Shown: piece after piece, positions 50,946-61,011 of the stretch
Layout: each line of letters opens with the position of its first letter
Numbering within the stretch: position 1 is the first letter of the stretch
Source of the DNA: Candidatus Magasanikiibacteriota bacterium
GTDB lineage: Bacteria; Patescibacteriota; Patescibacteriia; Magasanikbacterales; UBA922
Direction of reading: 5' to 3'
Assembly: GCA_018652595.1 (NCBI GenBank)
Contig: JABIBU010000027.1
Location: 4,416 to 68,415 of the forward strand
Length of the DNA: 64,000 nucleotides
The notes under the pieces: model-generated
What the model was told of the DNA's origin: nothing
Seen by the model: only the letters and a program-made list of their open reading frames with translations
The model's database searches: none
Position numbers and translations under genes: made by a program

Positions 50946-50974
50946 TTGACATTCTTTTTTATTTCTGTTATAAT
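50946..50974 (+). promoter_or_regulatory. Perfect consensus sigma70 promoter TTGACA-17-TATAAT driving tRNA-Asn
   Basis: TTGACA 50946-50951, TATAAT 50969-50974, about 25 nt upstream of the tRNA 5' end. Confidence 0.6.
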
Positions 50975-50999: not shown

Positions 51000-51385
51000 T
51001 CGACGGTAGCTCAGTGGTAGAGCAACTGGCTGTGACTTTAATAGCAGCCCTTGGTAGTAATACTGAGGTGAAAAACAAGGTGAACTGCAGGAACCCTTAA
51101 TCTGTTGCAAAACAGAAAAGGCGATCTGCAGCCAAGTCTTGACCCCTAATCCATATCCGGATTAATATTACGGACTTACTAAGACTGTAGTAGGGAGTCA
51201 AGAAAGGTTCAGAGACTATCCTTAACGGGAGTAGGATTCGATTTAATCGGATTCGAAGCGCCTTGCACCCCAACGCTCTTGATTTAGTCAAGTTTTTGGC
51301 GAGGGTGATAATATAGTCCACTCTTTTAGGAAACTAGAAGGCAAGTGTAACCAGTGGGTCGCCGGTTCGAGCCCGGCCCGTCGAG
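51000..51385 (+). tRNA. tRNA-Asn(GUU) interrupted by a group I intron in the anticodon loop (exons 51000..51033 and 51348..51385)
   Basis: Acceptor TCGACGG/CCGTCGA, D arm GCTC-AGTGGTA-GAGC, anticodon stem ACTGG/CCAGT, spliced loop CUGUUAA, variable loop GGGTC, T arm GCCGG-TTCGAGC-CCGGC, discriminator G. Confidence 0.75.
51034..51347 (+). other. Group I self-splicing intron (314 nt, no ORF) inserted between anticodon positions 35 and 36
   Basis: P1: exon GGCUGU pairs with the intron IGS GCAGCC (U.G at the splice site). P4 elements: CUGCAGG / UCUGCAG. R element GUUCAGAGACUA. S element AAUAUAGUCC. Terminal omega-G. Confidence 0.75.
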
Positions 51386-51391
51386 CAAAAC

Positions 51392-51422
51392 AAAAAAATA
51401 GTGTAATTACACTATTTTTTTG
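51392..51422 (+). terminator. Rho-independent terminator after tRNA (AAAAAAATAGTGTAATTACACTATTTTTTT)
   Basis: Perfect hairpin plus a U tract. Confidence 0.6.
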
Positions 51423-51440
51423 TTTATATCAATCTTTCTC

Positions 51441-52637
51441 TTACAATAATAAATCCTTCGGATCCACATACCCTTTATATCCATTACCATAATCAAAGCC
51501 AGCTGGACGATAGCCTAAATGGAGGTGAGAACCTGTGCTATCACCTGAATTGTCTGAGATACCTAATAAATCCCCTGCTTTTAATTTTTGATCTAACTTG
51601 ACACTTACTTTATCAAAATGACCGTAAACTGTTTGAGCTCCGCTAGTGTGTTCAAGTTTTACATATTTACCATAACCACCTGTATCTTTATTTCTACACT
51701 CAATTACTTTTCCATCTAAAACCGCGTAGACTTCCCTCTTTCCATCAGGACTGTCGTCAAATTTAGTGCGAAAATCAATTCCATTATGGCCTTTCATATC
51801 ATATTTTGCATAATGCTCCGGCCAGACACCAAATTCTTGAGTAATAAAAATTTTATCTAATGGATTACAAGCAAATTTATTTTTGTCTGTTTTTTTATCT
51901 ATATTAACAACTAGACCATCTTCCGTTGCTGTTGTATTTGGGAATATTTTCTTAGCCACTTTTTCAGCTTCATTGCGTTTTTTCAAATCCAAATAACTGT
52001 GAGCGGCAAAATGGGTAAGGTATAATTGTTTTACATTAGATTTTTTTGCAATCTCAGCCACATCATCTGGACTTGTATGACCCCAACTATCTTTTTCTCC
52101 TGGCAAAAGCGCGCACTCGTGAATCAATACGTCAGCATCTTGAGCTAGTTTATAATCATTTTCACATGGCCCCGTGTCACAGCAATAAGCTATTACCTTT
52201 CCATCTAATTCTATTCTATATCCGAGCGTATAATCTGCATGGTCTAATTTTAAACAAACAAATCTAAAAGGATTTTTGTAATGCCCAGGACGGAGCTTGA
52301 TAAAATCAGTTTTAAAAGTTAATTCACGAGATGAAGCTGTAAAAGGATGGTTTAAAAACTTTTTTAAATATTTTTTAGTTTTTTTACTGCCAAGAATTGT
52401 TAATTTTTGTTTAAATTTAAATTTTGGCAGACAATGCAAACCACAAACATGATCTATATGTAAATGACTGATGAATAAATAAATTGGTTTGTCTTCTGTG
52501 ATATATTTATCTAATTTACTAAAACCAAAACCAGCGTCAAAAATAATATAAAAATCTTTGGTTTCAAGCAAAGTACAAATAGTATTACCAGTATCAGTAT
52601 CATACCAGCCATTTGTTCCGAGGAAGGTTAGTTTCAT
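51441..52637 (-). CDS. Fusion protein: MBL-fold metallo-hydrolase + C-terminal M23 (LytM-type) peptidase domain
   Basis: HLHIDHVCG (MBL HxHxDH). C-terminal GHNGIDF … HLHLGY M23 zinc motifs. Confidence 0.6.
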   Translation of the reverse strand: MKLTFLGTNGWYDTDTGNTICTLLETKDFYIIFDAGFGFSKLDKYITEDKPIYLFISHLHIDHVCGLHCLPKFKFKQKLTILGSKKTKKYLKKFLNHPFTASSRELTFKTDFIKLRPGHYKNPFRFVCLKLDHADYTLGYRIELDGKVIAYCCDTGPCENDYKLAQDADVLIHECALLPGEKDSWGHTSPDDVAEIAKKSNVKQLYLTHFAAHSYLDLKKRNEAEKVAKKIFPNTTATEDGLVVNIDKKTDKNKFACNPLDKIFITQEFGVWPEHYAKYDMKGHNGIDFRTKFDDSPDGKREVYAVLDGKVIECRNKDTGGYGKYVKLEHTSGAQTVYGHFDKVSVKLDQKLKAGDLLGISDNSGDSTGSHLHLGYRPAGFDYGNGYKGYVDPKDLLL

Positions 52638-54759: not shown

Positions 54760-57700
54760 TTACTGAATAACAGCTCTAGTCATCGGACCAAAGTAGCCAT
54801 AGGCTGGAAGCCCGACTGATTGTTGGAATTTTATTAATGCACTTTGTGTAAGTGAACCAAAGTATATAGATTCATTTCCAGGAGAACCAACACCAGTAGT
54901 GTCTACTAAAAATCCATTATTATTCAAATATTTTTGTAATTCTCTTACATCATCCCCTACCATGCCAAATTCTAAATTTTGACTAAATCCAAAATTGTTA
55001 CTTGGTTTAATAATATTTTTTCCATCTTCAAATTTAATTTCAGTATCAATAATAAATAGATCAGACCATTTATAACCAAAGTGATTAAAAGCTTGTTCAT
55101 CTACTATCCAGCATTTTTTACTATTTTCTACTTTGTAAACTTTTGGTGAATTACCATATTTAATTAATTTACCCTCATAATCATTTTGTTCAAGTTCACT
55201 AACTTCTTCCAGATCTTCCAAAATAGATTGGACTGTTAACTCGGCTCTATTTTTTACCACATCTTCAAATTTAATTTTAATATCTTTTATATTATCATTA
55301 TCAAGATCTACCTCCATTATTTCTTCTAATTTTAAAATGATTATTTGAGGTTCTGAACTCACTCTAATAGTCACAATATTATCAAACAAATCAAACTCTA
55401 TTATCTCTACTGTGTGTTGCTGGGCTGTATAACTACCATGATTAGAAACTGTGGTCTGAAAATTTGTCGGGGTATTTATATAAGTAGCAATATTGGTACC
55501 CGCTTGACTAATAGTTCCAGCATCACCAGTGGACCCCATAGGAACAACAGTGTCAGCTGTACCAATTCCAACTGTTGGGACTGGTACTGGTGTAGCAACA
55601 CCACTACTATTTGCCACACAAGCTCCATTTGTTAAAGTATAACCACTACTACAAGTTGCAACACCACAAGTTGGGTATGCATTATATGTTGAGGCATTAG
55701 AAATTGTTGGACAAGTTGGTGTATCAGCACTAGTAAAACTCCAAGTTGTTGAAGCAGAAATTCCTGCATAGCTATTACCTACAGTATCATCAAATAGAGT
55801 TGACGCTATTGTTATATAATATTCTGTTTCATAATCAAAATCAGAAGTAGGATTAATGGTAGCAATAGCACCACTTATACTTAATTGTGTAGAAGTTGCT
55901 ACAATAGTTTCAACAACAGTATCATCGCTTATTTTATAGATGATAAAATTACCTGTACTTGTGACGATATCTTCATTAAAAGTAATTTCTAAATTTTGAC
56001 TAATTGAAACACTAGTTGCACCATCTAGTGGTGACAAAGTAGCCGTAGGAGCTGTTGTGTCAATCACTAATGCCTTATTGGTAGCTAAATCAGTGCTTGC
56101 CGTAAGCGTTGTTGTACTATTTCCTGAACCATCTGTAATAGTACCAGAGAGAGTTGCATTTAAATCTAATGAATTATCACCTGCTTGAACTGTATAATTA
56201 CAAGTCCCTGTGGTTGAATTAATAACTGAAAAAGTACAAGTTTGATCAGTATCACCTGTTTCAAGAGTGACAGTTATGTTTCCAGTACTTGTGACAACTT
56301 CAGAAAAAACAATATCAATATCTATTACCTCACCTGCTTTGTAGGTATTATTAGCTTTGTCAGAAGAAATAGAAGTAACGCTCGGTGAATCTACATCAGC
56401 ACTAGTAAAACTCCAGGTGGTAGAGGCTGTAATTCCAGCATAACTGTTACCACTAGTATCATCCACTGCAGTTGTCGCAATAGTAATATAATATTCTATT
56501 TCACTATCTAAAGTTGTAGAAGGGTTGATTACTAGAGCGGTTGAACCAGAAGTTGTAACTTTAGTTCCTGTAACATCTATTGTCTCAACCACGCTGTCAT
56601 CACTGGTTTTGTAAACCACAATATTACCAGTTGAAGTAACGATATCTTCATTGAAAGTAATTGTAAAAGTGGAATCTACACCAACACCTGTTGCATTATC
56701 AACTGGAGATAAAGATGAAAGTATTGGATCTGTAACATCTGCTAAACTTTCATATTCAAAAGCTCCTATGTCTCTCGCCGCTCCTGCCAATGTACCACCT
56801 CTTTGATCAATTGTCGGAATACTAATACTATTATTAGCAGTAGAAGTCGCATTATTAATTGCAATACTATCAGCAAGAAGAGCATAAGTACGTGTGTCAT
56901 TCAAACTAGAATTTAAAGCAGCGGAACTATCTAAACTTAAAGTGCCAGTAGTACTAATACCATACAACTCATAAACATCATTTTCATCTTGGTCTGTCCA
57001 ATCACCTGTAGTAGAAGTAAAATTACTATTAGCATGACCTATTATATTATATCCATTATTATGAAAAGTCCCAGCTACACTTATATCTTTGTATACATCT
57101 GCTGAATTGCCCGCTACGATAGAATTAGAAAGATAAAGTGTGGCCGAACCACTCATTCCAATACCTCCACCATAATCATCGATTGAATTATCAGTAATAG
57201 TACAGTTGGTAATATGGGCTGTACCAGAACCAATATAGACACCTCCACCACCATCTGATCCACCAGCTGTATTTTGATTGCCATAAATTGTAGAGTTAGT
57301 CAAAATCAAATTTCCAGTTGAAGAAGAAAAATATATACCAGCCCCATAACCATTGTAAACATAATCTACATTGTTATAAATAGCTGAATTCGTAATTGTT
57401 AGATTACCAAGCATATTCATACCAAAACCATAACCACCATAAATTTTACAGCTGTGTACTTCTGAATTATTAATAGTTACATCTGAACCAGCAGAACCAT
57501 ACAAACAACCACCATTCCAACCAGTACTATTTGGATCACCATACCGAACAGTACTACTATTTATAACAAGACTATACCCATCATAGACAGTAAAAATACG
57601 CTTATTACTCGATTCAATAGTTGAATTAGGTTGAAAAATCGTTGAAGATGCTCCGTGACCAATAATGGTTATGTCTTTATAAATTCTATAACCATAACCT

Positions 57701-60700
57701 GAAACATCACCACTTTCACCAGTACCATTATCCCAATCAAAAGTACCAGTCATATCAAAAACATCACCATCTACGTACTCAGTATAAGCCTTATGAAAAC
57801 TTTGATAAGGACTTCCGGAAGAACCAACGCCAGTAGAATCATCACCAGTAGAAGAATTAACATAAATTGTTATTGGTGTATAACTAGCTTGAGTGTTGGG
57901 ATTATTGGTGCTAGTGCTGGTTAGATATACAGTACCGTCAGATACACCTTCACCATTATATTCAAAAATTTGTATAATATAATCTGTGCTAGCAGTAAGA
58001 CCAGTAACATCTACAGTTGTATCCGTACCATCATATATAGTATACCAACCTGTTGAACCAATTTGCTGACCTGAGGCAAAAACAGAACTAGCTGTATACA
58101 TAGTTCCATCTACTGGACTAGCCGTACCAGAGCTTGCCTGTTTCATAAAAGCCACACGGCGAGAACCATTTCCATTTGTCCAATCAATTGTCATACTCGT
58201 CCGAATAATTGAAGAAAATGAAACTTCAGAAGCTTGAGTTGTTGGAGCACTTATTGCTGCTAAACCTGTACCATCAAATTCAAAAGCACCAATGTCAGTT
58301 AAACCGCTTCTGCCAGCACGACGCTGGTCAAGGGATGGAATACTAATACTATTATTTGCAGTTGTGGTGGCATTATTAATAGCAACACTGTCAGAATATA
58401 GTGAGATAGAGTGAGTTTGGTTTAAACTACCATGCAAGGCACCTTCTGCACTCATGTTTAATGTACCAGTAGTAGAGGAACCATAAAAAGTAAATATATC
58501 GTCATTATCAGAATCATACCAATCCCCTGTTGTAGAAGTAAATCCGAAAGCAATTCCACCAATAACATTGTACCCATTATTAACAAGGGTGCCGGATCCA
58601 CCAACAAATAGATCATTGTAATCATCTGCTGAATTACCAGCTATAATAGTATTGGAAAGATAAAGTGTGCCAGCACTAATATAAACACCTCCACCATATT
58701 CATCTATCAAATTATTTGTAATAGTACTGTTGGTTATAGTAGCGGTACCATTGTGAATACATACACCTCCCCCACCATCTGCCCCACCAGATGTATTTTG
58801 ATTATTATAAATACTTGAATTTGTAATGATCAAATTTCCAGTTGAAGAAGAAAAATATATACCAGCCCCATAACCATTATAAATAGAATCAATATTATCA
58901 AAGAGAGCTGAATTTGTAAGAGTTAAATTACCAAGAGCATAGATACCAAAACCATAACCGCCATAAACTCTACAGCCATATATATCTGAATTATTAAGAG
59001 TTACATTTGAACCAGATTCGGAATTTATACAACCACCACTCCAACCAGTACTGTCAGTTTCTCCATAACGAATAGTACTACTATTTACTGTAAAAGAATA
59101 CCCATCATAAATAGTGAAAACACGCTTATTACTTGAGTCAATTACTGAATCGGATTGAAAAATGGTCGAAGAAGCACCATGGCCGTTAATAGTTATATTT
59201 TTTTGTATTCTATAACCATAACTTGTAACATCACCGGTTTCGCCAGCACCATTATCCCAATCAAAAGTACCACTAGCGTCAATTGAATCGCCACTAATCG
59301 CTTCTGAGTATGCCTTATAAAATGTTTTATATGGACTACCAGAAGTACCATCACCGGTAGAATCATTACCAGTGTCTGAATTAGTATAAATAGTAGCGGC
59401 TGTATGACTAGCTTGTGCTTTTGGATTATCGGTAGAGGTAGACGTCAAATAAACAATTCCACTTTCTGTTCCAACACCATGGTATTCAAAAACTTGAATA
59501 ATATAATCAGTACTTGAACTCAACCCAGTAATATCCACAGTTGTACCCGTACCATCATAAATGGCATACCAACCAGTAGCATCAATTTGATCACCACTAC
59601 CAAAAACAGAACTGGCGGAATACATAGTTCCATCAGCCGGCGTACTAGTGCCAGTACTAGCCTCTTTCATGAAAGCCACACGGCGAGAACCATTTCCATT
59701 TGTCCAACTAGCAGTGTAGGTGTAAAGTTCAACAGAACTATATGTGATATCATACGCTTGAGTTGTTGGAGCACTCGGAGAAGATAAGCCAGAACCATTA
59801 TATTCAAAAGCACCAATGTCTGTTGCTCCGCTTCTGCCAGCACCACGTTGATCTAAGGCAGGAATACTTACTCCATTATTAGCAGTTGTAGTAGCGTTAT
59901 TAATGGCAATACTGTTTGTATAAATAGCAACTGTATGAGTTTGGTTTAAAGATTCATTTAAATTTCCACCGCCAGAATTTAAATTAAGAGTACCCGTAGT
60001 ACTTGATCCATTTAAAATATAGACATCATCATTGTCACTATCATACCAATCACCTGTAGTAGATACAAAACCATTTGAAGCACCTATTACATTGTATCCA
60101 TTGTTGTTTAGTGTGGCAGATGCGCCTTTGAATATATTATAATTACTTCCAGATGAATATCTAATAGTATTGCCAGCAACAATTGTATTGGAAAGATTTA
60201 AAACAGCCGTAGCACTATTAAAAAAAATACCACCATTATAATAGCTTTCATTGCCTGTAATAGTACTATTGGTAATAGTTGCAGTACCACTAGAAAGATA
60301 CAGACCTCCACCATAACTACTGCCACCAGTATTTTCATTACCATAAATAGATGAATTGGTAATAACTAAATTACCAGTAGATGTAGAGAAAAATATTCCC
60401 ATACCAAGACCATTGTAGGCATAATCAACATTGTTATAAATAGATGAATTGGTAATTGTAAGATCCCCCAAACTATAAATGGCCAGACCATAACCTGCAT
60501 AAAATTTACATCCAGTTACTTCGGAATTATTCAAAGTAACGCTTGATCCAGAATAAGAATAGAGACACCCTCCACTATTATTAGGCTCGCCATAACGAAT
60601 AGTACTACTAGAAATACTTAGAGAGTAACCATCATAAGTGGTAAACACGCGCCTGTCAGATGAATCAACTGTCGAAGCAGATTGAAAAATAGTCGAAGAA

Positions 60701-61011
60701 GCACCATGACCAATAATATCAACGTCTTTATCATCAATTTTAAAACCATAATCAGATGAATCGCCTGTTTCACCAGCATCTGACCAAGTAAAAGTACCGT
60801 GCGCATCAATAGTGTCGCCCGAACTAGCTGCATTATAAGCTTCGTTAAAAGTATTATATGGCTCTGCCTCTGTACCACTTTCTGTTCCTGAATAACTACT
60901 ACTCGTGTAAACAGTCGCTGCTTCAACAGAACTTAAACCAAAAAACAAAAAGAAAGTAACAAAAGATACCAAAAAATACTTTTTGTGTTTAAAACAAATT
61001 TTTTTTATCAT
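54760..61011 (-). CDS. Giant secreted surface protein (2083 aa): signal peptide, three tandem about 480-aa units of right-handed parallel beta-helix plus FN3-like domain, two bacterial Ig-like domains, Thr/Ser-rich linker, C-terminal peptidoglycan-binding (PG_binding_1-like) domain
   Basis: Internal triplication (…NSSIYNN…ITNSTIT…GNGSRRVAFMK…DYIIQ[VI]FEY…). Ig-like LSPVDNATGV… ×2. C-terminus LEFGMVGDDVRELQKYLN…LIKFQ. Confidence 0.8.
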   Translation of the reverse strand: MIKKICFKHKKYFLVSFVTFFLFFGLSSVEAATVYTSSSYSGTESGTEAEPYNTFNEAYNAASSGDTIDAHGTFTWSDAGETGDSSDYGFKIDDKDVDIIGHGASSTIFQSASTVDSSDRRVFTTYDGYSLSISSSTIRYGEPNNSGGCLYSYSGSSVTLNNSEVTGCKFYAGYGLAIYSLGDLTITNSSIYNNVDYAYNGLGMGIFFSTSTGNLVITNSSIYGNENTGGSSYGGGLYLSSGTATITNSTITGNESYYNGGIFFNSATAVLNLSNTIVAGNTIRYSSGSNYNIFKGASATLNNNGYNVIGASNGFVSTTGDWYDSDNDDVYILNGSSTTGTLNLNSGGGNLNESLNQTHTVAIYTNSIAINNATTTANNGVSIPALDQRGAGRSGATDIGAFEYNGSGLSSPSAPTTQAYDITYSSVELYTYTASWTNGNGSRRVAFMKEASTGTSTPADGTMYSASSVFGSGDQIDATGWYAIYDGTGTTVDITGLSSSTDYIIQVFEYHGVGTESGIVYLTSTSTDNPKAQASHTAATIYTNSDTGNDSTGDGTSGSPYKTFYKAYSEAISGDSIDASGTFDWDNGAGETGDVTSYGYRIQKNITINGHGASSTIFQSDSVIDSSNKRVFTIYDGYSFTVNSSTIRYGETDSTGWSGGCINSESGSNVTLNNSDIYGCRVYGGYGFGIYALGNLTLTNSALFDNIDSIYNGYGAGIYFSSSTGNLIITNSSIYNNQNTSGGADGGGGVCIHNGTATITNSTITNNLIDEYGGGVYISAGTLYLSNTIIAGNSADDYNDLFVGGSGTLVNNGYNVIGGIAFGFTSTTGDWYDSDNDDIFTFYGSSTTGTLNMSAEGALHGSLNQTHSISLYSDSVAINNATTTANNSISIPSLDQRRAGRSGLTDIGAFEFDGTGLAAISAPTTQASEVSFSSIIRTSMTIDWTNGNGSRRVAFMKQASSGTASPVDGTMYTASSVFASGQQIGSTGWYTIYDGTDTTVDVTGLTASTDYIIQIFEYNGEGVSDGTVYLTSTSTNNPNTQASYTPITIYVNSSTGDDSTGVGSSGSPYQSFHKAYTEYVDGDVFDMTGTFDWDNGTGESGDVSGYGYRIYKDITIIGHGASSTIFQPNSTIESSNKRIFTVYDGYSLVINSSTVRYGDPNSTGWNGGCLYGSAGSDVTINNSEVHSCKIYGGYGFGMNMLGNLTITNSAIYNNVDYVYNGYGAGIYFSSSTGNLILTNSTIYGNQNTAGGSDGGGGVYIGSGTAHITNCTITDNSIDDYGGGIGMSGSATLYLSNSIVAGNSADVYKDISVAGTFHNNGYNIIGHANSNFTSTTGDWTDQDENDVYELYGISTTGTLSLDSSAALNSSLNDTRTYALLADSIAINNATSTANNSISIPTIDQRGGTLAGAARDIGAFEYESLADVTDPILSSLSPVDNATGVGVDSTFTITFNEDIVTSTGNIVVYKTSDDSVVETIDVTGTKVTTSGSTALVINPSTTLDSEIEYYITIATTAVDDTSGNSYAGITASTTWSFTSADVDSPSVTSISSDKANNTYKAGEVIDIDIVFSEVVTSTGNITVTLETGDTDQTCTFSVINSTTGTCNYTVQAGDNSLDLNATLSGTITDGSGNSTTTLTASTDLATNKALVIDTTAPTATLSPLDGATSVSISQNLEITFNEDIVTSTGNFIIYKISDDTVVETIVATSTQLSISGAIATINPTSDFDYETEYYITIASTLFDDTVGNSYAGISASTTWSFTSADTPTCPTISNASTYNAYPTCGVATCSSGYTLTNGACVANSSGVATPVPVPTVGIGTADTVVPMGSTGDAGTISQAGTNIATYINTPTNFQTTVSNHGSYTAQQHTVEIIEFDLFDNIVTIRVSSEPQIIILKLEEIMEVDLDNDNIKDIKIKFEDVVKNRAELTVQSILEDLEEVSELEQNDYEGKLIKYGNSPKVYKVENSKKCWIVDEQAFNHFGYKWSDLFIIDTEIKFEDGKNIIKPSNNFGFSQNLEFGMVGDDVRELQKYLNNNGFLVDTTGVGSPGNESIYFGSLTQSALIKFQQSVGLPAYGYFGPMTRAVIQ

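Follow-up and report, generated by a model that had tools for sequence, protein, structure and literature searches.

Organization of the interrupted tRNA-Asn gene

We analysed a 64-kilobase (kb) stretch of contig JABIBU010000027.1 (assembly GCA_018652595.1, Candidatus Magasanikiibacteriota bacterium), referred to here as the window, in which a tRNA gene on the forward strand is split within its anticodon loop. With very high confidence, the split gene encodes tRNA-Asn(GUU) in a marine Magasanikbacteria-like Patescibacterium and is interrupted between positions 35 and 36 by an endonuclease-free, 314-nucleotide (nt) group I intron of the IA type. A preliminary description made from the sequence had proposed a tRNA-Asn gene with a group I intron at the same site, and both the tRNA and the intron were borne out. 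The coordinates of the gene, its expression signals and the helices of the intron are collected in Table 1.

When the two exons (51000-51033 and 51348-51385/6) were joined, they formed a canonical cloverleaf of 72/73 nt that ARAGORN identified as tRNA-Asn(gtt), in agreement with the cloverleaf and anticodon given in the preliminary description. The arms of the spliced tRNA were of standard length, the T loop read TTCGAGC and the anticodon loop read CUGUUAA. U51033 corresponds to U35 and is the last exon nucleotide before the 5' splice site, placing the insertion between anticodon nucleotides U35 and U36. The CCA end is not encoded and the sequence runs on as GCAAAAC after the discriminator. 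Run without its intron mode, ARAGORN found no tRNA anywhere in the window. As no other tRNA was detected there, the window is uninformative on the tRNA set of the genome.

The insert was identified as a group I intron by the Rfam model RF00028, which matched 51024-51340 on the plus strand over model positions 1-253 of 253 with a score of 78.2 bits (E 3.6e-18), against a gathering score of 50 bits. This was the sole Rfam match in the window. A reading frame for an intron endonuclease was sought within the intron, and there was no open reading frame (ORF) of at least 60 amino acids (aa) on the sense strand; two antisense ORFs matched no Pfam family above the cut-off.

Table 1. Coordinates of the split tRNA-Asn gene, its expression signals and the structural elements of its intron (MFE, element also present in the minimum free energy fold).
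Feature	Position	Strand	Description and evidence
Sigma-70-type promoter	50946-50974	+	-35 TTGACA (50946-51), 17-nt spacer, TG-extended -10 TATAAT (50969-74); 12/12 consensus
Split tRNA-Asn(GUU) gene	51000-51386	+	within the 64-kb window
5' exon of tRNA-Asn	51000-51033	+	acceptor 5' strand (UCGACGG), D arm, anticodon stem 5' strand, C32 U33 G34 U35; ARAGORN on spliced sequence
Group I intron	51034-51347	+	314 nt; preceded by U, terminal G51347; RF00028 and covariation
P1	51028-51049	+	exon GGCUGU (51028-33) with guide GCAGCC (51044-49), 10-nt loop; MFE
P2	51050-56 / 51061-67	+	GUAA tetraloop; 90% paired; 7/7 pairs change on both sides; MFE
P3	51076-51082 / 51259-51265	+	98.5% paired; 5/7 pairs change on both sides
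P4	51086-91 / 51125-30	+	100% paired, compensatory changes; covariation, RF00028, MFE
P5	51095-98 / 51118-21	+	enclosed by P4
P5a	51102-06 / 51111-15	+	GCAA loop; enclosed by P4
P6	51131-33 / 51206-08	+	within 51131-51208; covariation alignment, MFE
P6a	51137-43 / 51197-203	+	long extension ending in a three-way junction
P6a junction hairpins	~51147-64 and 51169-89	+	lineage-specific extension; MFE
R motif GUUCAGAGACUA	51207-18	+	read directly; contains the P7 5' strand
P7	51212-51218 / 51314-51319	+	G51212-C51319, G51214..A51218 with U51314..C51318; A51213 bulged; invariant 58/58
P7.1	51219-22 / 51227-30	+	98% paired; 3/4 pairs change on both sides; MFE
P7.2	51234-41 / 51247-54	+	90% paired; 8/8 pairs change on both sides; MFE
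P8	base 51266-70 / 51303-07	+	extended, bulged distal stem to 51307; 92% paired, 4/5 pairs change on both sides; MFE
S motif AAUAUAGUCC	51310-19	+	read directly; contains the P7 3' strand
P9.0	A51320-U51346, C51321-G51345	+	invariant 58/58
P9	51322-29 / 51334-41	+	GAAA tetraloop; 6/8 pairs change on both sides
omegaG	G51347	+	terminal intron nucleotide; conserved ...GUG 3' end in the alignment
3' exon	51348-51385/6	+	U36 A37 A38, anticodon stem 3' strand, 5-nt variable loop, T arm, acceptor 3' strand, discriminator G51385
AT-rich palindrome	51388-51425		perfect 17 base pairs (bp) between an A run and a T run; -17.7 kcal/mol on one strand and -17.2 on the other, z about -6.7 to -6.8

Secondary structure and splice sites of the intron

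The fold, the splice-site geometry and the identity of the tRNA are direct results of this analysis. The structure from P1 to P10 was written by hand and covariation was counted on a MAFFT alignment of the window intron with 57 endonuclease-free homologues (58 introns). The pair counts were controlled by sliding the 3' partners by 1-3 columns and by 500 shuffles. Standard pairs were found in 89.1% of the alignment cells as compared to 35-45% in the slid controls, and 54 of the 80 pairs changed on both sides. The covariation score was 0.462 against at most 0.11 for the slid versions, a value that none of the 500 shuffles reached. Covariation was seen in P2, P3, P4, P5a, P6a, P7.1, P7.2, P8 and P9, and no variation was seen in P7, in P9.0 or in the four P1 pairs derived from the loop across the 58 introns. 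The MFE fold of 51026-51353 independently yielded all of the hand-built helices except the pseudoknotted P7 (z = -4.55).

The group I elements named in the preliminary description were all present where it had put them, namely the internal guide pairing with the exon, the P4 strands, the R and S elements and the terminal G before UAA. The wobble pair U51033.G51044 in P1 marks the 5' splice site, and the U.G, G-C, U-A and C-G pairs were present in 58/58 introns. At the other end of the intron, G51347 is fixed by P9.0. The geometry of P1 and P9.0 together confirmed the insertion at 35/36. Within P7, G51214-C51318 is presumably the guanosine-binding pair, an assignment that we take from the established anatomy of group I introns. 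As the presence of P7.1 and P7.2 between P7 and the 3' strand of P3 is a hallmark of subgroup IA, the intron was classed as IA-like by these two helices.

Expression signals

The promoter upstream of the tRNA matched the consensus at 12/12 positions, as the preliminary description had noted, and carries in addition a TG extension. From its position, transcription would start at about 50981, so that some 18 nt of leader would precede the 5' end of the tRNA. The terminator that had also been proposed stood in part. No G+C-rich terminator was found downstream of the tRNA by the criteria of the terminator scan, and what is present is the AT-rich palindrome followed by a T run. The palindrome separates the tRNA gene from the convergent M23-peptidase gene, and plausibly acts as a bidirectional terminator common to both. 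The tRNA-Asn gene looks live and expressed, as had been supposed.

Host and related loci

The contig is not unique to one assembly. The metagenome-assembled genomes (MAGs) GCA_018657365.1 and GCA_018696835.1, both at NCBI, contain identical contigs, as do several marine assemblies, and 9 contigs from other samples were at least 99.96% identical to the window; at this level of identity they are uninformative on constraint. The nearest other genome was L132, a MAG labelled Candidatus Magasanikbacteria, in which the pre-tRNA was 91% identical and a 2.5-kb stretch of flanking genes 84% identical. A second relative, the metagenome contig L151, also showed 91% identity. The host is placed in Patescibacteria, a group of the candidate phyla radiation, by the position that NCBI gives to the lineage of L132, and this placement follows the MAG label given by the submitters.

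Between the window and L132 we counted 32 differences, and these were largely structure-preserving. In P2, U.G was replaced by C-G and G.U by A-U; P7.1 and P7.2 each showed U.G to C-G, and P9 showed U-A to C-G. Pairing in the distal P6 hairpin was kept in L132 through a double change from C-G to U-A.

The genes around the tRNA are chromosomal and encode GreA, TypA/BipA, a DEAD-box helicase, an EamA transporter, a fusion of a metallo-beta-lactamase (MBL) domain to an M23 peptidase, a UbiA-family protein and a 2083-aa putative surface protein. A phage origin of the locus was considered and rejected, as the pre-tRNA had no blastn match in 50,697 phage records and the neighbours are chromosomal housekeeping genes.

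Weighing of the alternative readings

Several observations weigh against a spliced tRNA-Asn gene at this locus. In its intron mode ARAGORN returned tRNA-Thr(UGU), with the 314-nt block shifted by 2 nt (CU/GU...AAG/UGUAA, slashes marking the exon borders). Against E. coli genomes, the spliced tRNA aligned best locally with a tRNA-Thr, over nt 8-63 only. P10 has only 2 bp in the window intron, and 32% of the family cells were paired at this helix. Finally, a search of metagenomes for an intron-less allele carrying the exact 3' half gave no match, a negative that is weak because the junction with the intron occurs in only two contigs of that collection, both of them from related species.

The first two of these observations speak for a tRNA-Thr(UGU) gene with its intron at 33/34, which would be spliced after U51031, would end its intron at G51345 and would have the loop CUUGUAA. 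The ligated-exon junction would read GGCUGUUAACC for tRNA-Asn and GGCUUGUAACC for tRNA-Thr. A U before the 5' splice site and a G as the 3'-terminal intron nucleotide are common to both options, so the assignment was tested in four ways, from P1, P9.0, the acceptor end and the full-length matches of the spliced tRNA given below. The P1 helix runs against tRNA-Thr, as U51031 forms a Watson-Crick pair with A51046 inside the helix whereas the conserved U.G falls at U51033 in 58/58 introns; the Asn site gives P1 6 contiguous pairs, the last of them U.G, as compared to 3 with the Thr site. The invariant P9.0, AC with GU, sets the terminal G at 51347, likewise in 58/58. The conserved ...GUG end of the intron, which follows from the P9.0 pairing, is also what makes the Asn/Thr mis-call possible. 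The acceptor end of the window tRNA, with U1-A72, C2-G71 and G73, differs from the G1-C72 and U73 of tRNA-Thr. In bacteria, G1-C72 and C2-G71 are identity determinants of tRNA-Thr. Among the matches listed in the survey below, 98 of 103 Asn-type host tRNAs of this intron family had U1-A72 and G73, and three tRNA-Thr genes from the same Patescibacteria loci start with GCC and have U73. The exact 2-nt mis-call has moreover been documented for both ARAGORN and tFind, and the sequenced spliced product of a homologue was tRNA-Asn joined at 35/36 (PMC13011429). The different anticodon obtained in intron mode was thereby resolved as a documented artefact, the Asn anticodon of the preliminary description was upheld, and a tRNA-Thr gene is extremely unlikely.

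Another possibility is decay or silencing of this copy, whose intron would no longer splice and whose work would be done by an intron-less tRNA-Asn elsewhere in the genome. In its favour, the genome was inspected within the 64-kb window only, and the window holds no other detected tRNA. All of the core elements are intact, however, and match the positions that are invariant in the family, the changes between related species are structure-preserving and compensatory, and the promoter is a perfect match to the consensus. The pre-tRNA is also better conserved in L132 and L151 (90-91% identity) than the adjacent conserved genes (82-84%), and intron-bearing and intron-less copies with the same anticodon seldom coexist in complete genomes (PMC13011429). 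We therefore consider a silent copy very improbable and favour a functional tRNA-Asn gene, as the preliminary description had done.

Naming the spliced tRNA by BLAST against phage, plasmid and E. coli collections was tried and set aside because the outcome was mixed. Full-length matches were tRNA-Asn (a Listeria tRNA-Asn at 82%, confirmed by ARAGORN, and annotated tRNA-Asn of Gordonia phages), whereas partial matches included tRNA-Thr and tRNA-Asp; the best of them (nt 5-68 and 8-63) included Aeromonas phage and E. coli tRNA-Thr. The E. coli match spans just the D and T arms. As these arms are generic, the naming rests on the acceptor end and P1. Seven homologues that a simple P1 scorer had scored as Thr proved to be mis-resolved, and all seven have the Asn-type U1-A72 and G73. 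An intron-less tRNA-Asn or tRNA-Thr(UGU) was also sought in 152 loci of the survey, where 16 uninterrupted tRNAs were present, none of them a tRNA-Asn.

Proposed splicing pathway

By homology to a member of its family that was spliced precisely at 35/36 in vitro, the intron at 51034-51347 would be catalytic. Judged from the consensus match, transcription would begin at the sigma-70 promoter. The intron then takes on its P1-P9 core, as the covariance-model match and the covariation show. P1 would present U35 in the U.G wobble, and an external guanosine held at the G-C pair of P7 would attack after U51033. G51347 (omegaG) would then occupy the guanosine site, placed there by the invariant 2-bp P9.0, with little help expected from the weak P10. 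Ligation of the exons would produce the anticodon loop CUGUUAA, and RNase P, 3' trimming and CCA addition would finish the tRNA. In the homologous system, a change of omegaG to C blocks ligation in vitro (PMC13011429).

A more far-reaching proposal is that the intron-bearing gene is the only tRNA-Asn of a streamlined marine Patescibacterium and that the lineage-specific enlargements of P6, with its three-way junction, and of P8 could tune folding or the rate of splicing to cellular GTP, Mg2+ or temperature. We regard this as a whole as unlikely, with the sole-copy status of the gene being the plausible part. If the gene were the sole tRNA-Asn, all Asn decoding would depend on the self-splicing of a ribozyme, and the tuning would amount to control of translation at the RNA level. 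Nakagawa et al. speculate likewise on such control for Patescibacteria (PMC13011429).

Comparison with known introns

Introns of exactly this kind, in tRNA-Asn at 35/36, were catalogued in 2020 and their splicing in vitro was shown in 2026, and the window copy is a further example. Williams 2020 (bioRxiv 10.1101/2020.01.27.920355), as reported in PMC13011429, lists 21 tRNA intron settings including 'Asn.4Ug' and the mix-up between it and 'Thr.2Ug'. Nakagawa et al. (mSystems 2026; PMC13011429) described introns at 35/36 in 15 tRNA-Asn and 3 tRNA-Asp genes from 95 complete Patescibacteria genomes. The homologue in GCA_016700035.1 self-spliced precisely at 35/36 in vitro, with the ligated product confirmed by sequencing (PMC13011429). 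In 4,934 complete genomes of bacteria the same study counted 28 introns at 35/36, with 19 in Patescibacteria and 25 of subgroup IA, and IC made up 81% of bacterial tRNA introns; the 35/36 tRNA-Asn intron is described there as the typical tRNA intron of Patescibacteria (PMC13011429). HNH endonucleases were present in 4 of the tRNA-Asn introns of that complete-genome survey (PMC13011429).

The window intron shares with this class its host tRNA, anticodon, insertion site, U.G wobble, terminal G and phylum, together with the ...GUG/UAAC 3' end that lies behind the Thr/Asn mis-call and an IA core with P7.1 and P7.2. The published members GCA_025999335.1, GCA_026016225.1 and GCA_016700035.1 match the window over long stretches, and the motifs of P1, P3, P4, P6, P7, P7.1, P7.2, P9.0 and P9 are common to the window and the sequences in the published Tables S3/S4. 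The intron also aligned over its whole core with 57 further members. It differs in its source, a marine Magasanikbacteria-like lineage represented by draft MAGs only, in contrast to the 95 complete genomes of the published set. At 314 nt it is longer than most of its endonuclease-free relatives (median about 260 nt), the extra length being a P6 extension with a three-way junction and a longer P8. The same enlarged P6 and P8 are found in L132. It also has no HNH endonuclease ORF, whereas among the matches listed 44 of 107 relatives have long introns, mostly with such an ORF.

The classical bacterial tRNA introns lie in tRNA-Leu at 34/35, tRNA-fMet at 33/34, tRNA-Ile2 at 36/37 and tRNA-Arg at 36/37, and all of these belong to subgroup IC3. 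The preliminary description had placed a tRNA-Asn host at 35/36 outside the classical cases. It does lie outside these four settings, but it is not novel, as the class was published in 2020 and 2026. Like the IC3 introns in Leu(UAA) of cyanobacteria and plastids, fMet, Ile(CAU) of Azoarcus and Arg(CCU), which are self-splicing ribozymes, the window intron is a group I intron of the anticodon loop and is predicted to self-splice. They are alike in a P1 formed from the anticodon loop and stem, in the U.G wobble, in the terminal G, in their compactness and in GNRA tetraloops on L2 and L9. The window intron differs from them in its host tRNA, in its 35/36 site and in having P7.1 and P7.2, which make it IA and not IC3.

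The phage T4 introns td, nrdB and sunY belong to subgroup IA, and the IA architecture with P7.1 and P7.2 is common to them and the window intron. They differ from it in their hosts, as the phage introns interrupt protein-coding genes and the window intron, which has no ORF, interrupts a chromosomal tRNA gene.

Since the class has already been published and spliced in vitro, the biological significance of this copy is small. Its value is for annotation, as standard tRNA finders miss the gene or mislabel it as tRNA-Thr(UGU), and as a result a genome of this kind would seem to lack a tRNA-Asn and would be scored as less complete. What is specific to the window copy is its marine Magasanikbacteria-like host, the enlarged P6/P8 periphery and the absence of an endonuclease gene.

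Distribution of the intron family

GTDB species genomes were scanned for the core pattern AGAGACTAT N66-96 ATAGTCCAC N8 GAAA. At least 120 matches were obtained, overwhelmingly in MAGs labelled Patescibacteria. Among the matches listed, 109 were in tRNA genes, and 96 of these resolved directly as tRNA-Asn(GUU) interrupted at 35/36, with 7 more having Asn-type bodies. The remaining tRNA hosts among the matches listed were Tyr (2), Asp, His, Arg and Ser. The survey thus added about 100 or more examples in tRNA-Asn among the matches listed, as compared to the 15 of the 95 complete Patescibacteria genomes published.

Introns of 484-632 nt accounted for 44 of the 107 tRNA-Asn-type introns (about 40%) among the matches listed, for example L034, L039, L045, L069, L085, L090 and L092. 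In most of these long introns an HNH-like ORF, about 100-135 aa in length, opens within the P1 loop at 20-50 nt from the intron start and encodes CxxC...HH...CxxCH motifs. Two of the ORFs scored 22.3 and 20.0 bits against the Pfam HNH family (cut-off 21.4) and a third had no match. The published survey of complete genomes has only four tRNA-Asn introns with an endonuclease, so draft genomes of Patescibacteria may hold such potentially mobile copies much more often.

Introns of the same family were also seen after U35 in two tRNA-Tyr(GUA) genes (L037 and L087), in a tRNA-Asp(GUC) gene (L059) and in a putative tRNA-His(GUG) gene (L043). These hosts fit a GCAG guide reading the shared loop C32-U33-G34-U35, which suggests movement between tRNAs with GUN anticodons. 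One of the 35/36 introns in tRNA-Asn was on L123 (CAZHMB010000061.1), a 2.1-kb contig in a MAG that bears the label Candidatus Woesearchaeota archaeon. The contig is most likely bacterial and mis-binned, and Williams 2020 (bioRxiv 10.1101/2020.01.27.920355) argues for similar mis-binning in a comparable case.

An IA-type core, consisting of P7, a P7.1 motif (e.g. UAUCCCnnnnGGGAGUA), the P7 3' strand and a P9 GAAA loop, was also present in 21 IMG/VR viral contigs (L010-L030), with examples at L013:4446-4545, L014:2135-2243, L017:6915-7011 and L026:7859-7956. The core was inside a tRNA gene in three of the 21, an Arg-UCU gene in L012 and Asn genes in L021 and L028. Many of the other contigs, often 80-168 kb long and from sample 3300045988, had coding-like sequence extending as far as P7, which suggests phage introns in protein-coding genes with intron-internal endonuclease ORFs. 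The match in L010 looks like a chance occurrence.

Neighbouring genes

Two of the neighbouring genes are of side interest. The gene convergent with the tRNA (51441-52637, minus strand) encodes a 398-aa fusion of an N-terminal metallo-beta-lactamase-fold domain (PF12706) with a C-terminal M23 peptidase. Precomputed matches for this protein also list PF23023, Anti-Pycsar_Apyc1, and the combination of domains is unusual. A 2083-aa ORF on the minus strand (54760-61011) encodes beta-helix, Big_5, fn3-like and C-terminal peptidoglycan-binding domains and is probably a giant surface protein. It is missing at the corresponding position of L132, and in the window it contains internal repeats that are about 76% identical in DNA.

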